Source: Perkinsus olseni (lineage: Eukaryota). Taken from it: a stretch of 34,352 nucleotides of DNA. Positions 9 through 27,986 of the stretch are shown here, piece after piece (the stretch's first letter is position 1; every line of letters starts with the position of its first letter). The translations under genes and the position numbers were made by a program. Location: positions 1 through 34,352 of the forward strand of contig JABANN010000375.1 in assembly GCA_013115125.1 (NCBI GenBank), in the 5' to 3' direction. The notes beneath the pieces are model-generated. The model was not told the origin of the DNA. It was given only the letters and a program-made list of their open reading frames with translations, and ran no database searches.

Positions 9-671
9 ATGATTCTCGTTAACACGTACCCCAGAAAGAAAACTGGGGACTATGCGATGCGGTTCAGATGCCCGTTCTCTCGTGCGACAGGCTATGTCGC
101 GCAATGTCCTTACACTGGTTACATATATTGCAGCGAGGATGATGTTTTCACCCTCGGTCTACCACCATCCCCTCATCCACCACATGAACCGCTGGACCCG
201 TCCAAGGCACGAGAGGAGGAGCGGAAGGCTAAAATGGACGATGTCATCTTGGACTGTCTCAGAAAGGACGCGAACGTCGACACCACTCTGAGAGAGCTTG
301 AACGGAATGGGCTTATCGCCGCTGGGGTCGACTCAAGAACCATCAAATACATCTACAATCGGAGGTACGTTCTGAAGAAGGCCCTAGACCCGGGGGTCCC
401 CAGATGTGTTGGCGACTCGACGGTAGAGCTCGAAGAGTTCTGTCTGAATAATAGTGCTATCCCTCCTCCGGAAGAACCCCACAAGATATTTTGCATCACC
501 CATAAGTCAACCGCCGCCTCATACTATTCATACTTCACGACACGTCACCTATTAGAGAAGGGAGTAGGTGAGGTCCATAGCGACGGTTTAGCCGTCGCTG
601 AGGATATTGGGGTCCGCTGGGCTTGCCTTCGGCAAGCATATTCCCCGACGCCCCAGGATTTGAAGTCCTGA
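9..671 (+). mobile_element. Truncated transposase-like ORF (Mutator/MULE-type or related DDE superfamily), N-terminal part only
   Basis: Intronless 220-aa ORF. It has a C..C..H..H zinc-finger-like segment (FRCPFSRATGYVAQCPYTG...PHPPHEP), a helical segment (TIKYIYNRRYVLKK...ELEEFC...IP) and then YFTTRHLLE...VHSDG, which resembles the strand leading to the first catalytic Asp of MULE transposases. The ORF then runs through hairpins into an antisense tRNA fragment and stops. Assignment by motif recall only. Confidence 0.5.
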
Positions 672-698
672 CCGAGCACCAGCCCGGGTCACCAGTGC
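644..698 (-). pseudogene. 5' fragment (nt 1-55 of 87) of tRNA-Sec(UCA), broken in the variable-arm loop
   Basis: The reverse complement reads GCACTGGTGACCCGGGCTGGTGCTCGGTCAGGACTTCAAATCCTGGGGCGTCGGG, identical to the first 55 nt of the copies at 6527 and 27283. It then diverges abruptly to GAATATGCTTGCC; the T-arm and 3' acceptor strand are absent. Confidence 0.93.
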
Positions 699-1426
699 AA
701 CTTAAAAATATTGGACCATTTTTCTGCGTGGCCGATGTTCGTCTCAGTACAACCAAACAATATTCCACCTCGTGTCGATCAGAAACGTTTTCTACGACGA
801 TTCTTTCTAGTCCCGTCACGGGACTCCCGTGTGAGGAGCTGCTGAGGCCCACAGTCACGAAACAAGCACGTGTGTTGCGAGATGTCGCCAAAAGCGATTT
901 TTTCTCGCGAGTAAAGGAGAGATGAATCATATACCCATTCCGAACAACTGGATACCACGCCAACTCGTCATCGAATCCTGTCATGCACTTCTTGCAAACA
1001 TGGGACTCATTGAGTCCGACTCAACACTTCGACCATTACAGCAGACGTTCGACAAATTTTCACGTTCGAGTGTGAGACTGGATACACTCTTAGTCCCTGC
1101 GGTAAGTTACTAAGGGCTTGTGAACGTCCGTCCAGCTCAAAGCACTCTACACTACCCTCTTGCTCAACCGGATGTTTTTCTGGCGCGCGACCCGGTATTT
1201 ACGGTGGGGCCCTGTTCCTAAGTACCCACCAATACCAATTTTCCCACAACGCCAACTACTACCACCCACTAGGTCCTCGCCCATCTATTCCTCCAATAAC
1301 TTAACAACTCAAGTAGTACTCACGAGTAGGAGTGAAGGAAGACTTCACCGACGAAAACGGTGATAGTTATGACTACAGGGGTAACCGAGCGGCAGCAGCA
1401 GCGGTAGCAGCAGAGTGACTTGGAAA

Positions 1427-4689
<3,263 letters not shown>

Positions 4690-5887: not shown

Positions 5888-6526
5888 GTCAACAACAATA
5901 ACTCCAGCCACTTGAAGAGAGGCAACATGCGGCAGCCGCTACTAAGCCACTGCAACAGCCACTGACTCTCTGGGGGGTCGAAGGAGGTTTCTCCAGGAAG
6001 GCAGCGATAGCCGTGTTGTGTTCCCATAGTGTTCATACAGGAGACCTTGTCGGGATGGTATCGGAAAAACTCGAGTACCTCAAACCCGTGAAATGAGGGA
6101 GATTGTCTCGCAGGAAGGGGAAGGTCGTCAGCTTTAACGGTTGGGTATAGCTGGGCCTTCGCGGATAACGGTTGTGAGAGGATGAGCGCTTCAACACCTC
6201 TGAAGGGCGAGTGGGGGAGTCTGCCAGGAATAGTTTCCTGTAGTCACCGTGGGAGTGACATGAACACATAACCACAGCTGCTGCCACGAACTCTCTCTTG
6301 GAATTGCCGCGCGCTGGCGTATTCGACCGAATGGTACCTTCGAGGTGGACGTGCTAGTTGCCGTGGCTGGTCCGCTGTACGCATAAACCTGAGAGCCCAG
6401 GGATCCGAGATGAAGTTCGATCTGCCGGCGGTGAATTCTAGACAGCTACAGGCGAACTTCCTGTTCATTGCGGTTTAGCTATATCTGATTCGGTCTCTCA
6501 CAGAGTGTGCGAGGTCTTCATGTGGT

Positions 6527-6613
6527 GCACTGGTGACCCGGGCTGGTGCTCGGTCAGGACTTCAAATCCTGGGGCGTCGGGAGGCGCAGGCGTTCGATTC
6601 GCCCTCCGGTGCG
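6527..6613 (+). tRNA. tRNA-Sec (selenocysteine, anticodon UCA), intact
   Basis: 87 nt with a 9-bp acceptor stem GCACTGGTG/CTCCGGTGC (one T-T), 6-bp D stem CCGGGC/GCTCGG with TGGT loop, 6-bp anticodon stem with CTTCAAA loop, long variable arm GCGTC-GGGA-GGCGC, 4-bp T stem GGCG/CGCC with TTCGATT loop, discriminator G, then TTTTT. This is the eukaryotic 9/4 tRNA-Sec architecture. Confidence 0.93.
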
Positions 6614-6924: not shown

Positions 6925-7061
6925 GCGAACGGTTGCTTTAACCCGTGGGCAGGGGGGGGGGTCACTCGAGTCCTTCTTGGCGACCCCGTCGCTGGCGAAC
7001 GGTTGCTTTAACCCGTGGGCAGGGGGGGTCACTCGAGTCCTTCTTGGCGACCCCGTCGCTG
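6925..7061. repeat. Tandem duplication of a ~70-bp GC-rich unit (2 copies)
   Basis: Units 6925-6994 and 6995-7061 are identical except for the G run (10 vs 7 G). Confidence 0.9.
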
Positions 7062-8152
7062 GCCTCTCATTCACGCCACCTCATCGGCCCGAGGAACCCG
7101 CGCTGAGACTTGGGTGGGCGCGAGGACGCTATGAGGTGCTACGACCTTCACCAGCAAGACCAAATACCCATTGCCATCACGCCCACGGACGCGGTAGTTC
7201 TACTGATACACAGAGTCTCTGACGTGAGTCGCGAGCTCTTATCGTCACAAACTTCAGTGGCGGTTTGAAGGCGTCGTCATTAGTAGCTACTCCCTTCCTT
7301 GTGATACTGGTCAATGCTGTAGAGATCTTATCTCGAAAATCTCCCGCGTGCTGGAATTACAAGGAAACGCTACATTGAATTCATTCAGACAAACCAGCGG
7401 TTCATCTAGGTTTAAACCGGTGCATGTTGTGCGCGCAATGGGACGCCTGGTGTCCCAGTTGTGCCTCTGACGCCAGCAGGCTAGTCATCAGAATGCGTCC
7501 GGCGACGGGTCGAGCATATGACTGTCGGCTGTTTGTCGACGCCATAAAGTCATCTACCTGACGCCTTCGGGAAGTGGCTTGCGCCTACAGACCCGCGGCT
7601 GCGATGCGAAGGATCGCCTTCGTCTCCGACATAGTTTTCCTTCGCGTCACCCTCGCAACCTTCGTGTGAGATTGTCGTCCGTTTTGACGGCGCCAGTAAA
7701 TCACCGCGCCTCGTCCCGTCTTAAGGTCCGAGGCTCTGCGCTTCGTTCAGCGGAGCATATGCCCGTTGCGCTCCCGTAGCGTTGGAGGTCGGAGAGGCTC
7801 CGAGCCTTCCGTGTTGGTTGAGATTCCTTCGGTTCGCGCGACGTTTTGTGTTCACCTCTACGTCACATGCGCGACCACTTCGCTCTCTTTCAGCTCGAAC
7901 GCTGCAGTTTTCATCGATAAACTTATCTCTAGAATCATTTGACATCTTCGGCTATTCCGCCATCGATAACAGGGTACCTGTGTATCATTCGCGGGGTTTT
8001 CGGTCGTATTTGGTCGAGGGCGGCTAGGAGTCGGATGTGGACACGTACCAACGTGGAAGCGTACGAATGCCCGATGACGACCAATAGTGTTTATTTGCGG
8101 TCCTCACTGTGAGAACCTCACAGCTTTCTTATCTCTCCACGTACACTTGTCC

Positions 8153-9121
8153 ATGTCCTCGAAGACAGTCGCGGTTATCGGTGCTACGGGTTTGATCGGT
8201 AAAAGTATCAGCTTGGCCCTGTTGAGGTTGGGCCATAAGGTGATCGCTGTTACTCGGAGCATCTCGAGTAAGGAGGTTATCGCCAAGGAGCTCGAGAACG
8301 CCGGGGCTAAGGTGAGTGTACTCGGGCATGCCTAATGCTATTGCCTATCTACTATCAGGTAGTTGAGGTCCCCAATCAAAACGATGAGGCCGCATTGGCT
8401 ACCGTCTTCCGTAAGAACCAAGTCGACACTGTTATTTGCGCTATACACGGCTCAGCTCCGGTCATCAGAGATGTCGAGGGTCACATCATCAACGCTGCCG
8501 TAAAGAGCGGTACCGTTGAGCGCTTCTGCCCCGACGAGTTCGGTGTCCATACAGGAGCCATTCCGTGGGGTTTGGCTGATCTCTTCGATGCCAAAAAGGA
8601 GATGCAGGAGCTCGTCCGCAAGTCTGGGTTAAAGTGGACCGCCGTATTCGTTGGGGGGGGTGTTTTCTTATTTTGCCCCCTCACGGGAGTCAGGTCGCGG
8701 ATTCGTCGTTACCTTCGGCGATCGGGATGCTCTGTTCTTCACCAACAGCCTACAAGATATCGGAATGATGATAGCCCGGGCCTCTACTGATGAGCGCACC
8801 ATCAACAAGTACGTGCAGTTCCAGGTTAACCCGACCACTCAGGCAAAGAATCTGGAGATGGTCAGGAAGATCTGGCCGAAGACGGATTTCCCTGAGAGGC
8901 ACATTGACGAGGCCGAGCTCATCCGCCTTATGCGCGACGAGAGCGATAACGACCTCTGGGTTATCCTGTACGCCATCTTCTGCATGGGCCGTATGGATTG
9001 TCTTGATTTCCCCGAGACCATGTTGGGCGATGGTATCTTCCCTGCCGACTACAAGTTCACCACCATTGAGGAGTGCCTCTCTGATTCTGCCTTCGTCTTC
9101 CCAGACAGCAAGAAGGCGTAG
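8153..9121 (+). CDS. NmrA/isoflavone-reductase-like NAD(P)-binding oxidoreductase (one intron at 8312-8358; apparent frameshift at the G8 run 8653-8660)
   Basis: Rossmann motif VAVIGATGLIG, then VDTVICAI, RFCPDEFG, K...LKWTAV, followed in another frame by GGVFSYF...TFGD...DIG...DERTINK. Confidence 0.85.
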
Positions 9122-19864: not shown

Positions 19865-22800
19865 CTAGAAGCGAGTGAAGACCTCCATGCCTGTGGAGTG
19901 TAGGAGCAGTACTCGATCTAGGGACTTGGTGAGGCAGTCGCAGTAGGCCATGTAGGAGGCACAGTCCTTCTCGGTCTCGGTGGACCAAATGTCGGGCATA
20001 TTCATCATCACCAGAGCACTGTCTTTGCTTCGCTCCGCTATTATCGAGTTCATCCTCATGTACGGGCGTGCGCTGTTTGGATGGACCACAGTAGATGGAC
20101 GACGCTGCGACGCTCCTCCTGATGGCACCTTGAGGGAGTTGGCCGACTGAGAATTTGAGCTGAACGCGTTGACCTGTGCCAGACGATCCATGTAGCTCCG
20201 CCTCTCCTCAATCTTTTTGTGGACGTTAGACAAAAGATCTGATTCGACGTTCCACTCGAGGTCCTCATCGAAGGGTTTGGTGTTCGGGACACGACGCTGC
20301 TGTAGTGATGGGTGGTGCGGCAAACTTGAGGGATTCTGCTCTTCCTTAGCCGGGAGAACTCCATTAAAGAGGTCGTCAAGGCTCGTGGGGAGGGTATTTT
20401 GCTGAGAGAAAGGAACATGAGGCTGTCTGCAGAGAGCCGTGCCCGACTCACCCTTTTGAAGCCGATCTCGGTGGCAGCCAGGTCATCTCCTCTATTGTTG
20501 ACCTTCATCGTCCAGTCGTAGGTGTAGGGTTCGATCATGGCATCATCGTGGAGGACCACCACCTCAATAACAACATTGTCCAACAGCCTATGTCCGGTGA
20601 GGAGCTTCCGCAAGTTGCTCTTTGCCGTCTCCGTGGCCTCGTCGTCCGCATGCTCCATCACCAGCAAGACCCGTACTTGGCAGCCTCGCCAGACCTTGTG
20701 CTGTTTGAGGAAGTGGGCGCAGAGAAGGAGAAAGCCGCCATCGTGTATCATCCACCAGACGTCGATCGTGCCATTCATGGGGATCGACCGCTCCCCCACA
20801 GGCATGAAGGACATGTTCTTCACGCACATGATGGCCTTGCCCGTGTTGGTGGCGAACTGCAGCAGACGAACAAACTCGCAAGCTTCATCCGACCGACCCT
20901 GCCAGTTAGACGGCCAGGCCAGTAGGACCGAGTTAGGCCTCAGGCCTCCGATACCAGCGAGTTGGACGGCGTATGAAGCCCCTTCCCCGAAGGAGGGGGC
21001 CACCACTACATCCGCGAAGCCTTGTAACGACTCCTGAGCCATCACTTCAGCGACCCGGCTCCTCTCAGCCGCTACCTGAAATGACGAGGACCGTCGTAGT
21101 ACGGCTGCTGAGCACACCGAGTATAGCTTACCCTCTTGTCGTCACCATCAACTACAATAGCTGATGCAATGCACATGCCGCGGCCCTTCCTCATTTGCCC
21201 GTAGAAGCGCAGCAGATCATGGCAACCCATCTTTGACAGCATCGAATTGGTATCCCCATCCCCCCCAGAGTGGTCAGCACCATTACCAACTTGGTAGAGC
21301 ACAAGTACCTGTAGTAAGGGACTGCGGGACAGAAGGGCTAGTGACTGGCTACCTGTGGCCTCCAGTTAATCCTCTTGTGGACCTTCTCTTGCAACCCCTG
21401 CAGCGCCGTCAACGCGAAGTTGTACCGCAGACCGGCAAAGCCACTACCCCACTCGGCCTCGGCCCCGACCCAGTCCAAGTAGAGGTAGAGCAAGGCAGCC
21501 AGGACAAGCACGCCGATGGTCCAGTAGACCGACACTATTATCATCACCGCCAAGGCAGCCACTACACCCACGAACGAGGACAGGATGTACCACAACCGAA
21601 ACCGCCTTCTGAAGATGCCAGCAGGCCGCCACGTGGGGGTCTTGAGTAGAGTAAGCATCAGGCAGGAGACGTTCATGAAGGCGTAGCAGACGAGGAAGCA
21701 CATCGTGAGTAGGGGAGCGATCAGATCGAGATTTCCGATCATCGACAGGGCGATAGACAGAATTGTGGTTATCAGAACTGCCCGGGCGGGCTCCCTCTTG
21801 CGGTTCACCACACTGAGTGGCTTCAAGATGGGCAGGAGATTGTCGGCTGAAATGGACTGCATGAGTCTAGGGGCTACAGTAAAGCACTGCAGAGCTTGGG
21901 AGACCGAGGAGATGAAGATACCAACGTAAGCTGGTATCCTATGTGGCCACACAATCTGACCAACAATGGTCCTTGCTTCATCGTTATTGACCCCGGCCAG
22001 TCGGCGAAGATGTGCAGCGGCAGCCTCTGTGCCATAAGGGCCATGCTTTAGGTAATCGCTCGTGGCTACAGCACCCCAGAGTAACATGAATGATAGGTAC
22101 CTGTACAGCAGCAGATCTCCCGTGATGAAGGGCTCAAGCAACTGGCCCTCTACGACATTCTACTCTTACGAGAACTTCAACGGTGGAGAACGGAAAAGGA
22201 CAGTCCCAGGAGAATCGCCGTCGGTGGCGCAACGTAAAGGTTGAGCTGAACGACGGGTCGATTACTCATATCACTCCCGAGAATACTGGCGATGAGTTCT
22301 ATGGCTGTACGTCGGAGTATTTCTCCAATCTTGACGGCTACTGCCCTTGCTACTTACATGAAAAGGGATATCGTGATCGCTCCGAAAGTGCCGTTCCTGA
22401 TGCTCTTGGGTGGATCCCTCAGTACATCAGCCCGGTTAGCTCCCGATAGTATACCAGTGAAGCAGGGGAACACTATAGACAATACCGTACCAAACCGAAC
22501 GCCATCATCATAGGAGGGGCCGAGGTTGTCGCTGAAGGTGGAGGCACTGAGCCCGGTGACCCCAGCCATCTCTATGGCATCACTCTGGGGTGACACGAAG
22601 ATACCAACGTAGAACATGAGAATAGTAAGACCGACTACTACGACGAAGAAGACGCCGAGCTTAGTGACAACATGGATGCCGCCCCAGACCACGACGTTGA
22701 GGATGAGGACCAGGGAGCCTCCGAAAATCTGATGGTAGCCCGGTATGTCGGCCAAGGAGGGAGCTGCCATGACCAAAGCGTCAACAGCTCCAACGGACTC

Positions 22801-23211
22801 TAAGACGCCTAGAAGGGCGAAGCCTAGGTAGTAAGTGATACCGACGCTGGCTCCGGCATAGGGCCCAAGGGATCTAGACAGCATATGGTAGGGCCCACCC
22901 TCAGAGACAACACCACCAGAGGAGGCGATAGCACTAAGGCAGGAGGTAGTACAGAAGGCCACAATGAAGGACAAGATGACAGCCAGGCAGGCTTGGCCCA
23001 CACCGGCATTGCCGACGACATAGAAGAACCTCAGGAATATGAGGACCCCCCACATGTTCTCGCAAGTGGGTACTAAAACTCCAGTGAAGGTTCCCTTTAG
23101 CTTCTTCCGGGCAGCCGCCGCCTCTTCATCACTGCTGCCAGTGGCAGTGGACCCGCGCTTGGGCTTGTCACACGACGAGGCAATGCTGCCCCGGAGGGTC
23201 TCCCCAAGCAT
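19865..23211 (-). CDS. Cation-chloride cotransporter, SLC12 (KCC/CCC-like), multi-exon
   Basis: GTFTGVLVPTCENMWGVLIFLR, GGPYHMLSRSLG, FPCFTGILSGANR, APRLMQSI, IAPLLTMCFLVCYAFMN, EWGSG, NWRPQ, GIGGLRPNSVLLAWP, GTIDVWWMIHDGG and C-terminal RVLLLHSTGMEVFT are all SLC12 hallmarks. The start codon is uncertain. Confidence 0.93.
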
Positions 23212-23729
23212 GGTGGCATCAGCACCAAAGATAGTCAAGTCGTTCTGTTGAACCTGCTCACCATCATCACTTCTGCTGGAGGGATGAGTGACCTAAAAAG
23301 AGACCAGAGAATGCCGAGTAGGCCGAGAGCCAATGCCATCGTGCCACATTGCCAGCCCTCTGCGCCTGTGAAGCGGCCCATTTGCGACTCTGGCGACCTT
23401 TTTCGAGGGTTTTCCGCCGTTTCGTCACCAAATCAAGCGCAAGACAGCCCTAGTTTATTGCACCATCGGTTAGATGACGATGAGAGCTTTCGATCGCGGG
23501 CCACTAGAAGCCCAAACTCGTTGGCAACAGGACATTACGAGGAGAGGTCCCTTTTCAACCCTGTAGTACCTTGACGTTAAACAGGTTGTTGAGATTGGTG
23601 ATATTAGTTTCCTTATCAGTTGACGCTGGATTATGGTGTCCCTTATCATCGGGGGCCATTGGTAAAGTTCAAAGTGGCTGGTGTTGCTGCTATCGGAAGT
23701 ATCACCATTAGACGATGTCTCCCTCCCGG

Positions 23730-26183: not shown

Positions 26184-27986
26184 ATGACTTCGGCTATTGC
26201 AAAGCAGCATCTCGTCAGTAACGGTAGGCCCACTACTGCGACAGCGTGACACTATTGCATCAGGCGATGGCTTGCCCACCGGCGCCACGACCGATACTTC
26301 CAACCGTCTGTTCACTCCGAAATTCGTACCTCTGTAGCTCTGGCATCGGGTCTGCCGGTAGTGGTTCAGGTGCTCACCCCTGGCATCAAGACTGAACGTC
26401 GAAGGAAAGCTGTTGAGGACTATATACAACCGGCTGAGGTGGGTGACGAGGAGTGTTGAGGGTTGATCTTGGGAGTGATGTCAGGTCTTCTGTGTCCGCT
26501 TCTCGCCTGATGATACTCTCATGGCTGCTTCTACCAGTAACGGACTCATTAAGATCTACAACTGTCGGGATGGAATGGAAGTCTATACGCTGCACTCGCG
26601 ACATACCGGTATGACTGGGCGAATGCTCTGCGGCGGCTATGGAGCGACGCGTTTCACAGGCGACATCGTCCAACCGATAACGCAAGTCCGCTGGCGTCCT
26701 GGAGGCAGCTCAGCGAAGACTAAGAACGTTTTGGTCAGTGTGAATGCTGAAGGAGTGGTAGGAGGTCATCGACTTCAGCGTTTTGCCGTGGAGGGGAATC
26801 CTACAGGTTTCTCACTGGCATGTTACCACCGGTACGTGCATGCATGAGGATACTGAAGAGGGGAATCAGCTCTTCTGTGTGGACTACTCGACAGATGGAA
26901 GCCAGTTCGCCACAGCGGGGAGGGAGAGGTGGCGTTCAGCATTGCTGAGCATGCTGGTGATTTGGACTTTGCGTCAGGGGCGTGTCTGTCTACGATGAGA
27001 ACACCAAGGCGTTGATCACGACTCTGAAAGGTGGAGATAGCCTGCACACTCCGGGCCATTCCAACAGAGTTTTCAGTCTCAAGTGACGAGCTAGTCGGAT
27101 GGCTGATGATGATGGTGGGTTTTGCTGTTTGCTGCTCAGATATCATCCGAAGGACCCGAATGTGATAATTACAGGCGGCTGGGACAACACTGTACAGTTT
27201 TGGGACGTCAGGAAGGGGTATAGTGTTCGCTCAATATTCGGTGAGTCAGGGTCGCGGAAATTGTTTAAAGTTTTCTCGTGGTGCACTGGTGACCCGGGCT
27301 GGTGCTCGGTCAGGACTTCAAATCCTGGGGCGTCGGGAGGCGCAGGCGTTCGATTCGCCCTCCGGTGCGTTTTCTTGTATTTTTTCTGACGCGTCTTCCT
27401 GTCAAGCCACGCGCAGGTTGCTCCTTAGGTCCGCATATCTGTGGTGACAGCGTAGACATCAGCAATGATGGTAAACGCATCCTAACGGGTAGTTGGAGGA
27501 TTGACAGGCAACTGCAAATTTGGGATTATGCGGAGGGAACTCTTATCGAGGACATACCGTGGAGGACCGGGGTGGGCAATAATCTCCTCCGGGCTGTCGT
27601 GCGGTGGTGATACTGAGGCAGCCAGAGAGTCCTCAGGCCTCCGTCACCCAGCCATGCATGCTCTACGCAGCACAGTTCAACAAGGGCCCTCGCTCTGGAG
27701 AGCTCATCTGTGCTGGTGGTAGCGGCGCCAATGAGGCCAAGGTCATGCACAGCAAAGGTCCAGTAGGACACCCCGATGCCTGGACGACTATCGGGACAGT
27801 GACAGGTTAGCTCGAGCTACCCGCGTCCGACTGAAGGGTCCATCAGGTGTGGATAAGGGCTGCTTTACAGTTGACTTCTCCTCTGGGGACTCCGCTGCGC
27901 CGGAGTTGGTGGCCCTGGGTGGTGGTGACGGTGTCGTTCGTGTGATGGAAATCGGCTATGAAGATGAGGGAGAGGAGGTCTTGTGA
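26184..27986 (+). CDS. WD40-repeat protein, multi-exon (one intron hosts tRNA-Sec)
   Basis: VFCVRFSPDD, LFCVDYSTDGSQFATAG, GHSNRVFSL, YHPKDPNVIITGGWDNTVQFWDVR, SIFG|PHICGDSVDISNDGKRILTGSW, LQIWD, FTVDFS; ends GEEVL-TGA at 27986. The start is tentative. Confidence 0.88.
27283..27369 (+). tRNA. tRNA-Sec (anticodon UCA), intact, intronic
   Basis: Identical to 6527-6613 over all 87 nt and followed by TTTT. Lies in intron 27241-27428 (GTGAGT...CCTTAG) of the WD40 gene. Confidence 0.93.

Follow-up and report, generated by a model that had tools for sequence, protein, structure and literature searches.

The DNA analysed here (a stretch of 34,352 nt, hereafter 'the window') contains three genes for selenocysteine tRNA (tRNA-Sec), one of which is cut in its variable loop and joined, through a short piece of filler DNA, to the interior of a truncated transposase gene of the Mutator-like element (MULE) type. 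We consider it probable that this arrangement arose from an end-joining insertion or rearrangement, and not from a target-specific integration catalysed by a transposase. One of three tRNA-Sec genes would thus have been lost through a repair accident involving a decaying MULE, while two remain intact. Nothing in the data calls for a transposon that targets tRNA-Sec, as had been proposed in a first-pass annotation made from the sequence.

Intact and split tRNA-Sec genes

Two intact tRNA-Sec genes are located on the forward strand at positions 6527–6613 and 27283–27369 (ARAGORN, Rfam), each scoring 73.4 bits against Rfam family RF01852 (gathering score 47). A repeat search of the window revealed that positions 644–699 (56 nt) are repeated in inverted orientation, with 100% complementarity, at both genes; read on the minus strand, this stretch comprises one upstream base common to the genes followed by tRNA-Sec nt 1–55 (644–698, minus strand; a perfect inverted match to both intact genes). 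This bears out the earlier description of a minus-strand copy that is identical to the others over nt 1–55 and switches to other sequence at 643/644. The base following nt 55 is G in the fragment versus A56 in the intact genes. In a cloverleaf parsed by hand, with a 9-bp acceptor stem, a 6-bp D stem, the anticodon at nt 36–38 and a 4-bp T stem, nt 53–56 form the 4-nt loop of the variable arm, and the cut thus lies in the variable loop, as the first-pass annotation had placed it. The fragment retains the 5' strand of the acceptor stem, the D arm, the anticodon arm and half of the variable arm; the corresponding Rfam match (604–698) reaches 30.7 bits, below the gathering score of RF01852, and judged by its sequence 644–698 is classified as a non-functional tRNA-Sec fragment.

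The intact genes are embedded in a 132-nt repeat exhibiting 88% identity between its two copies, and share about 41 nt of upstream sequence (6486–6526 and 27242–27282). A weak motif, located about 28–45 nt upstream, is present at all three tRNA-Sec loci (at the third in 700–745, minus strand) and may represent a candidate upstream promoter element; the native upstream flank of the split locus (699–745, minus strand) is single-copy. The window also encodes a tRNA-Thr (ARAGORN/Rfam), and about 310 nt downstream of the tRNA-Sec gene at 6527 a unit of 67–70 nt is present in two perfect tandem copies (6925–7063).

The junction in public sequencing runs

Six public runs deposited under one organism label contain 97–99% of the words sampled from positions 1–1500 of the window, and the assembled Logan contigs (contigs, not reads) of four of these were used: X1, X3, X7 (labelled as RNA) and X8. 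X1 and X3 originate from two studies, and each contains a 117-nt contig (557–673) that crosses the junction, at a depth of 0.98x (X1) and 1.08x (X3) relative to the unique flank contig, which begins at 670, extends over 5882 nt and has 1x depth. The split junction is real, and every copy of the locus carries it. Both runs could derive from the source strain, and they are hence not independent of the assembly. A chimera created by assembly at a repeat was considered, given that the window contig ends at base 1 within a repeat of 2–3 copies; with a 1x contig bridging 643/644 in runs from two studies, we regard the probability of such a chimera as virtually negligible, and the misassembly that the first-pass annotation had named as a possible refutation is not what is seen. 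No inference was drawn from the zero cover of positions 1–643 in the contigs of X7 and X8.

The open reading frame and its family

The DNA to which the tRNA gene is joined contains, at 3–599 on the forward strand, a truncated MULE-type transposase coding sequence that corresponds approximately to residues 83–283 of a 950-residue P. olseni protein (P0002); on the left it extends past base 1 of the window, and no part of the catalytic domain is present. The open reading frame (ORF) at 9–671 (forward strand, 220 residues) is chimeric: 197 residues (9–599) are derived from the transposase, and 24 more are encoded by the junction DNA and the antisense strand of the tRNA, the frame passing through the junction to a stop codon at 669–671. 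It was initially taken for the end of an ORF; what is seen is instead the N-terminal third of the protein, with a frame that reads on. The chimeric ORF is identical (100%) to an existing predicted protein record (P0001).

An exhaustive phmmer search with the ORF yielded nine proteins at E ≤ 0.001 besides the window's own, the best match being P0002 (61% identity, E 3e-73, query residues 1–193 aligned with residues 85–277), while BLASTP comparison with P. olseni protein P0011 gave 58% identity over 210 residues (E 1e-86). The clusters to which five of the nine relatives belong have 16 members, 15 of them named, and all of the named ones are from Perkinsus olseni; their UniRef names designate MULE-transposase-domain or SWIM-domain proteins. 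Word-indexed protein searches returned no longer relatives of the ORF, only the window's own protein when near relatives were sought, and two P. olseni proteins when the family alignment was used. In metagenome scans neither the window ORF nor P0002 retrieved a relative, a profile of the family alignment matched solved structures only by chance (PCNA, E ~0.7), and tblastn of the family proteins within the window matched at the 3–599 locus only.

Pfam models identify the family weakly: the window ORF has a chance-level match only (E 0.15), the MULE model appears in one of 18 scanned relatives (P0005) at 23.1, below its cut-off of 27.6, and the SWIM model in five of the 18, one of which passes (20.1 versus 19.6). 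The layout of the family alignment, D..D..CxxH..W..E, is more telling: (i) the first invariant Asp (D419) is located in the motif D[CFY]TYKLSW, (ii) the second is D485, (iii) the motif CF[VI]HMWRN follows 43 residues past D485 in P0004 (counted by hand), that is, within the MULE spacing of 15–45, (iv) the Trp of TWN[QR]F precedes the catalytic Glu, and (v) this Glu belongs to RHxNxxEAxN. In the available text of PMC5499845, (C/D)xxH and Trp features are listed for both MULEs and hATs. In the ESM Atlas, the core of P0004 is matched by MULE clusters at 0.96 by features, with 174 features in common, and all 10 of its 10 structure rows are MULE clusters (TM by query 0.68–0.83). The neighbours of the ORF itself include a cluster named FAR1 at 0.93, which we treat as a lead only.

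The relatives' catalytic layout, their UniRef names and the Atlas clusters thus identify the ORF as the N-terminal third of a MULE transposase that retains the finger region (C,C,H,H) along with the linker. The features of a MULE-type DDE domain belong to the protein family, the window copy itself being devoid of the domain: its ORF ends about 10 residues ahead of the first catalytic Asp. The putative zinc finger (69–185, forward strand) comprises C21, C33, H56 and H59 of the ORF starting at base 9, and its four columns are invariant in all six aligned sequences and invariant or nearly so in a set of 12. The C2H2-like finger and the VHSDG motif recognized at the outset are thus both present, in a C..C..H..H pattern, and VHSDG is not a catalytic motif. 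What had been called transposase-like sequence next to tRNA-Sec is a truncated gene of a DDE transposase, and the choice between MULE and Dada that had been left to further analysis falls, by relatives, catalytic motifs and Atlas matches, on MULE/Mutator. With MULEs of the FAR1/MuDR type the relatives share the two Asp residues, the CxxH motif about 43 residues past the second of these, the Trp upstream of the Glu, and a SWIM finger; the window copy differs in that it keeps the DNA-binding third only, with neither terminal repeats nor a target duplication visible. MULEs have an N-terminal zinc-finger DNA-binding domain (WRKY/FAR1/FLYWCH type) and long terminal inverted repeats (>100 bp); of the window copy, the left end is situated beyond base 1 and the right end is missing.

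Two further classes of element were considered and rejected: Cryptons, since the protein is of the DDE type, and Helitrons, by eye, since there are no TC/CTRR termini and no A|T host site at the junction.

The break in the element and the filler DNA

Between the coding sequence and the tRNA fragment, the first-pass annotation had noted two perfect hairpins, and both are real: the first occupies 579–599 on the forward strand (arms 579–586 and 592–599, as a DNA fold) and the second 621–637 (arms 621–627 and 631–637). Folding of 570–650 as DNA gives −20.7 kcal/mol (z = −4.1), with none of 200 shuffled sequences as good. Their interpretation is informed by a contig of X1 and X3 that covers 52–586 at 1.9–2.0x depth and splits into two branches at 586. 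Owing to the approximately twofold depth, a second, identical copy of 52–586 is placed in the genome. One branch of the fork is the window; the other is an unbranched 1x contig of 202 nt, the first 30 letters of which read, in the +1 frame and translated by hand, MNFTYKLSW, that is, the motif D[CFY]TYKLSW with Asn in place of Asp. If the second copy is devoid of 587–597, its next two letters match 598–599, and with these 11 nt removed MNFTYKLSW is in frame directly after SDGLAVA, at the spacing observed in P. olseni proteins.

Based on this continuation and spacing, we read the first hairpin as native coding sequence for SDGLAVA and not as the end of a transposon. The second genomic copy would then have apparently lost 11 nt (587–597, forward strand; from the loose end at 586 in X1 and X3) with a resulting frameshift, and, if both the deletion and the Asn reading hold, the two visible copies seem to be dead although they are identical over 52–586. 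The window copy is broken inside the transposase ORF, by our reading at 599/600 and no later, a breakpoint that is derived from one 30-letter loose-end consensus read by hand. Hence, the element does not extend to 643/644, where its end was originally placed; it appears to stop at 599/600 and to be followed by 44 nt of junction, or filler, DNA (600–643) that holds the second hairpin.

In total, 44–57 nt of unique, unplaced DNA separate the element from the tRNA. As 587–643 lies in an unbranched 1x contig, no other copy shares at least 31 nt of it. A search of the rest of the window for the source of 600–643 yielded only matches of 9–11 nt, by our estimate roughly at chance level, and there is no inverted repeat between 600–643 and 1–600. 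Since a graph with k = 31 is blind to shorter shared stretches, an element terminus could have left a remnant of up to 30 nt immediately ahead of 644. The 202-nt contig of the other copy, unbranched at 1x, implies moreover that the part of the transposase to the right of the break occurs once in the genome; the reciprocal right half of the window copy is not kept.

The 3' part of the split tRNA

The node for the 5' part of the tRNA (644–699) has 2.9–3.1x depth in X1 and X3, and the contig linking the intact 3' part to it 2.05–2.09x, from which it follows that the genome has three copies of the 5' part, two of which belong to intact genes, and that the window contains all of them. The length of the contig at the intact junction provides a hint as to the fate of the missing part. 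It is 61 nt (31 + 30) in X1 and X3, whereas a k = 31 de Bruijn simulation with the window's three copies only predicts 66 nt (36 + 30), since both trailers share TTTT; in X8, the counterpart figure is 36 nt, as the simulation predicts. The five missing nucleotides imply an extra branch between the k-mers for tRNA nt 87–57 and nt 86–56, and, with the depth still at 2x, this points to a third sequence that holds nt 57–87 and then departs. An orphan 3' piece (nt 57–87) thus probably survives elsewhere in the genome. Its edge would lie within one base of that of the 5' piece, with A56 lost and no target-site duplication. Both statements are drawn from the lengths of Logan contigs, which can drop variants, and the third path itself was not seen. 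Between nt 86 and nt 26 the contig at the intact junction has no branches, which means that the 3' piece never overlaps the 5' piece, and the contig structure accordingly suggests that no target-site duplication of the 8–10 bp typical of MULEs is present. The first-pass annotation had anticipated the missing 3' half of the tRNA together with a short duplication: the former is likely to exist, but the latter is not supported by pieces that comprise nt 1–55 and nt 57–87. Two such pieces, with one base lost and nothing duplicated, are unlike what a DDE transposase leaves.

Origin of the junction

In the course of events that we favour, a double-strand break would have occurred in the variable loop of one of the three tRNA-Sec genes, between nt 55 and nt 57, with loss of a single base (A56), and the broken gene would have been ligated to foreign DNA by non-homologous, end-joining-type repair. 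The visible end of this foreign DNA would be a dead, truncated MULE of the Perkinsus type, broken at 599/600 just before its catalytic domain and connected to the tRNA through the 44 nt of filler; the foreign DNA as a whole may have been inserted as a segment or may represent the opposite side of a rearrangement. It could still begin with a transposon terminus, given that base 1 of the window already lies within the repeat. Since no template was identified for the filler, the repair pathway is conjectural. Filler DNA is found at end-joining junctions of chromosomal breaks, and maize Mu elements are known to give rise to internally deleted derivatives that contain filler. With such filler junctions and deleted Mu derivatives the case shares the joining of unrelated sequences, the loss of one base with no duplication, and a short unplaced insert with a small palindrome; it differs in that a template for the 44 nt is absent from the window, so that a templated origin is unproven.

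The principal alternative is an ordinary MULE insertion, not site-specific, followed by a deletion (for example, by interrupted gap repair) that removed the element from about codon 197 through its right end together with the duplicated target and left the filler. The ORF is that of a MULE transposase, the identity of two copies over 52–586 implies recent activity or duplication, and an orphan 3' piece seems to exist, all of which such a history would accommodate. It would, however, require the second deletion to end one base past the start of the duplicated 8–10-bp target; no trace of a right terminus in common with the other copy is evident at k = 31; and no duplication of 8–10 bp, the size given for MULEs in the available text of PMC5499845, is seen where one is expected. 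Chiefly because of where the deletion has to end, we consider this alternative rather unlikely, and retain end joining as the preferred explanation.

Target specificity and comparison with Dada elements

The first-pass annotation had compared the junction with transposons of the Dada superfamily and had regarded tRNA-Sec as the target of the element. The sections of PMC3706591 at hand do describe P. marinus Dada families in the genes for tRNA-Ile, -Leu, -Gly and -Tyr, each family having its copies at a single defined position within a multicopy RNA gene; tRNA-Sec is absent from the targets given there, and the terms "selenocysteine" and "tRNA-Sec" have 0 occurrences in that paper. Among the papers listed by literature searches, none dealt with Mutator-like elements of Perkinsus or with transposons that target tRNA-Sec.

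A DNA transposon family specific for the variable loop of tRNA-Sec, analogous to Dada at the tRNA genes of P. marinus, would be consistent with a clean break inside a multicopy small-RNA gene and with the apparent retention of both tRNA pieces, and it is likewise DDE-transposon sequence that here adjoins a cut tRNA gene in a Perkinsus-like genome. The copy numbers argue against it. There are 2–3 copies of the element in the genome (positions 1–81 have 2.7–2.8x depth), and the depths of the 5' and 3' parts of the tRNA are fully accounted for by one split and two intact genes, which places the remaining one or two copies outside tRNA-Sec. Only one of the 2–3 copies thus touches tRNA-Sec, and the clustering at one site that characterizes Dada is not observed; no further copies abutting tRNA-Sec, which the annotation had suggested to look for, are indicated by the depths in X1 and X3, and X8 has intact copies only. 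In addition, there is no duplication, and on the element's side the junction consists of mid-ORF sequence plus unique filler. The proteins differ as well: the family encoded in the window has a C,C,H,H finger, CxxH and a SWIM finger, while Dada transposases are described in PMC3706591 (in the part available) as having an N-terminal CCCC and a C-terminal CCHC finger, DxxH after the second Asp, and duplications of 6–7 bp. None of these (CCCC and CCHC fingers, DxxH) is exhibited by the family, which is set apart from Dada by these described features; here, moreover, no 6–7-bp duplication accompanies the junction, which lies in mid-ORF with filler, at a target occupied by one copy. Site-specific targeting of tRNA-Sec is not supported, and we consider a family dedicated to it very unlikely.

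If the orphan 3' piece were situated at the far end of the element, one would have to consider that a Perkinsus MULE, or a composite element, integrates in the tRNA-Sec variable loop without forming a duplication. That reading is a long shot, and the small weight given to it also covers a milder variant in which the 220-residue chimeric ORF, consisting of the DNA-binding part only, serves as a putative repressor of its family. Were such integration true, tRNA-Sec would be a new target for a DNA transposon, and the ends would have been joined by a chemistry unusual for this class. That a genome is known to harbour Dada elements specific for tRNA genes does not make every tRNA gene cut beside a transposase a case of targeted insertion.

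Polarity of the event and the native locus

Run X8 bears the same organism label as the others, but its pieces of 756–1495 show as much as about 9% divergence from the window. It contains one unbranched 92-nt contig, extending from 36 nt before 644 through 699, which implies that neither break junction is present in X8. It also contains a contig that joins tRNA-Sec 670–704 to a diverged version of the window's flank from 700 onward; ungapped, 20 of 30 positions match the window, including an exact block of 10 nt (counted by hand). Since X8 thus exhibits intact copies only, along with a homologous upstream flank, the split of tRNA-Sec appears to be derived in the lineage of the window, for which we regard the evidence as moderate, contigs being better evidence of presence than of absence. 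The clean break from which the first-pass annotation had argued for a recent event is, in keeping with this, both clean and specific to the lineage.

The same flank bears on the possibility that the tRNA-Sec fragment was captured by the transposon in the manner of a Pack-MULE and travels with it. MULEs do take up fragments of host DNA, as stated in the portion of PMC5499845 consulted. However, the DNA from 700 onward is single-copy for 5.9 kb, and in X8 it forms the flank of a tRNA-Sec gene; the fragment hence sits at its native locus, and we regard capture as extremely improbable.

Genomic context and significance

The case carries little weight for biology at large. What it documents, in Perkinsus-like genomes, is a MULE family of restricted lineage, to which the window copy adds a new member in truncated form. 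The surrounding genes are ordinary nuclear genes of the host, encoding the C-terminal domain of a DEAD-box helicase (2027–3300, minus strand), an NmrA-like protein (8311–8787, forward strand) and an intron-split transporter of the SLC12/amino-acid-permease type (20056–23289, minus strand). Finally, positions 1332–1467 are represented in the RNA-labelled run X7 by a 162-nt contig with a depth of 1364, compared with 3–15 for other X7 pieces; it starts with Illumina adapter letters at 1332, and Rfam has no match for 1332–1467 even at E ≤ 1. A short RNA present in large amounts, or an exon with high expression, could account for this contig.
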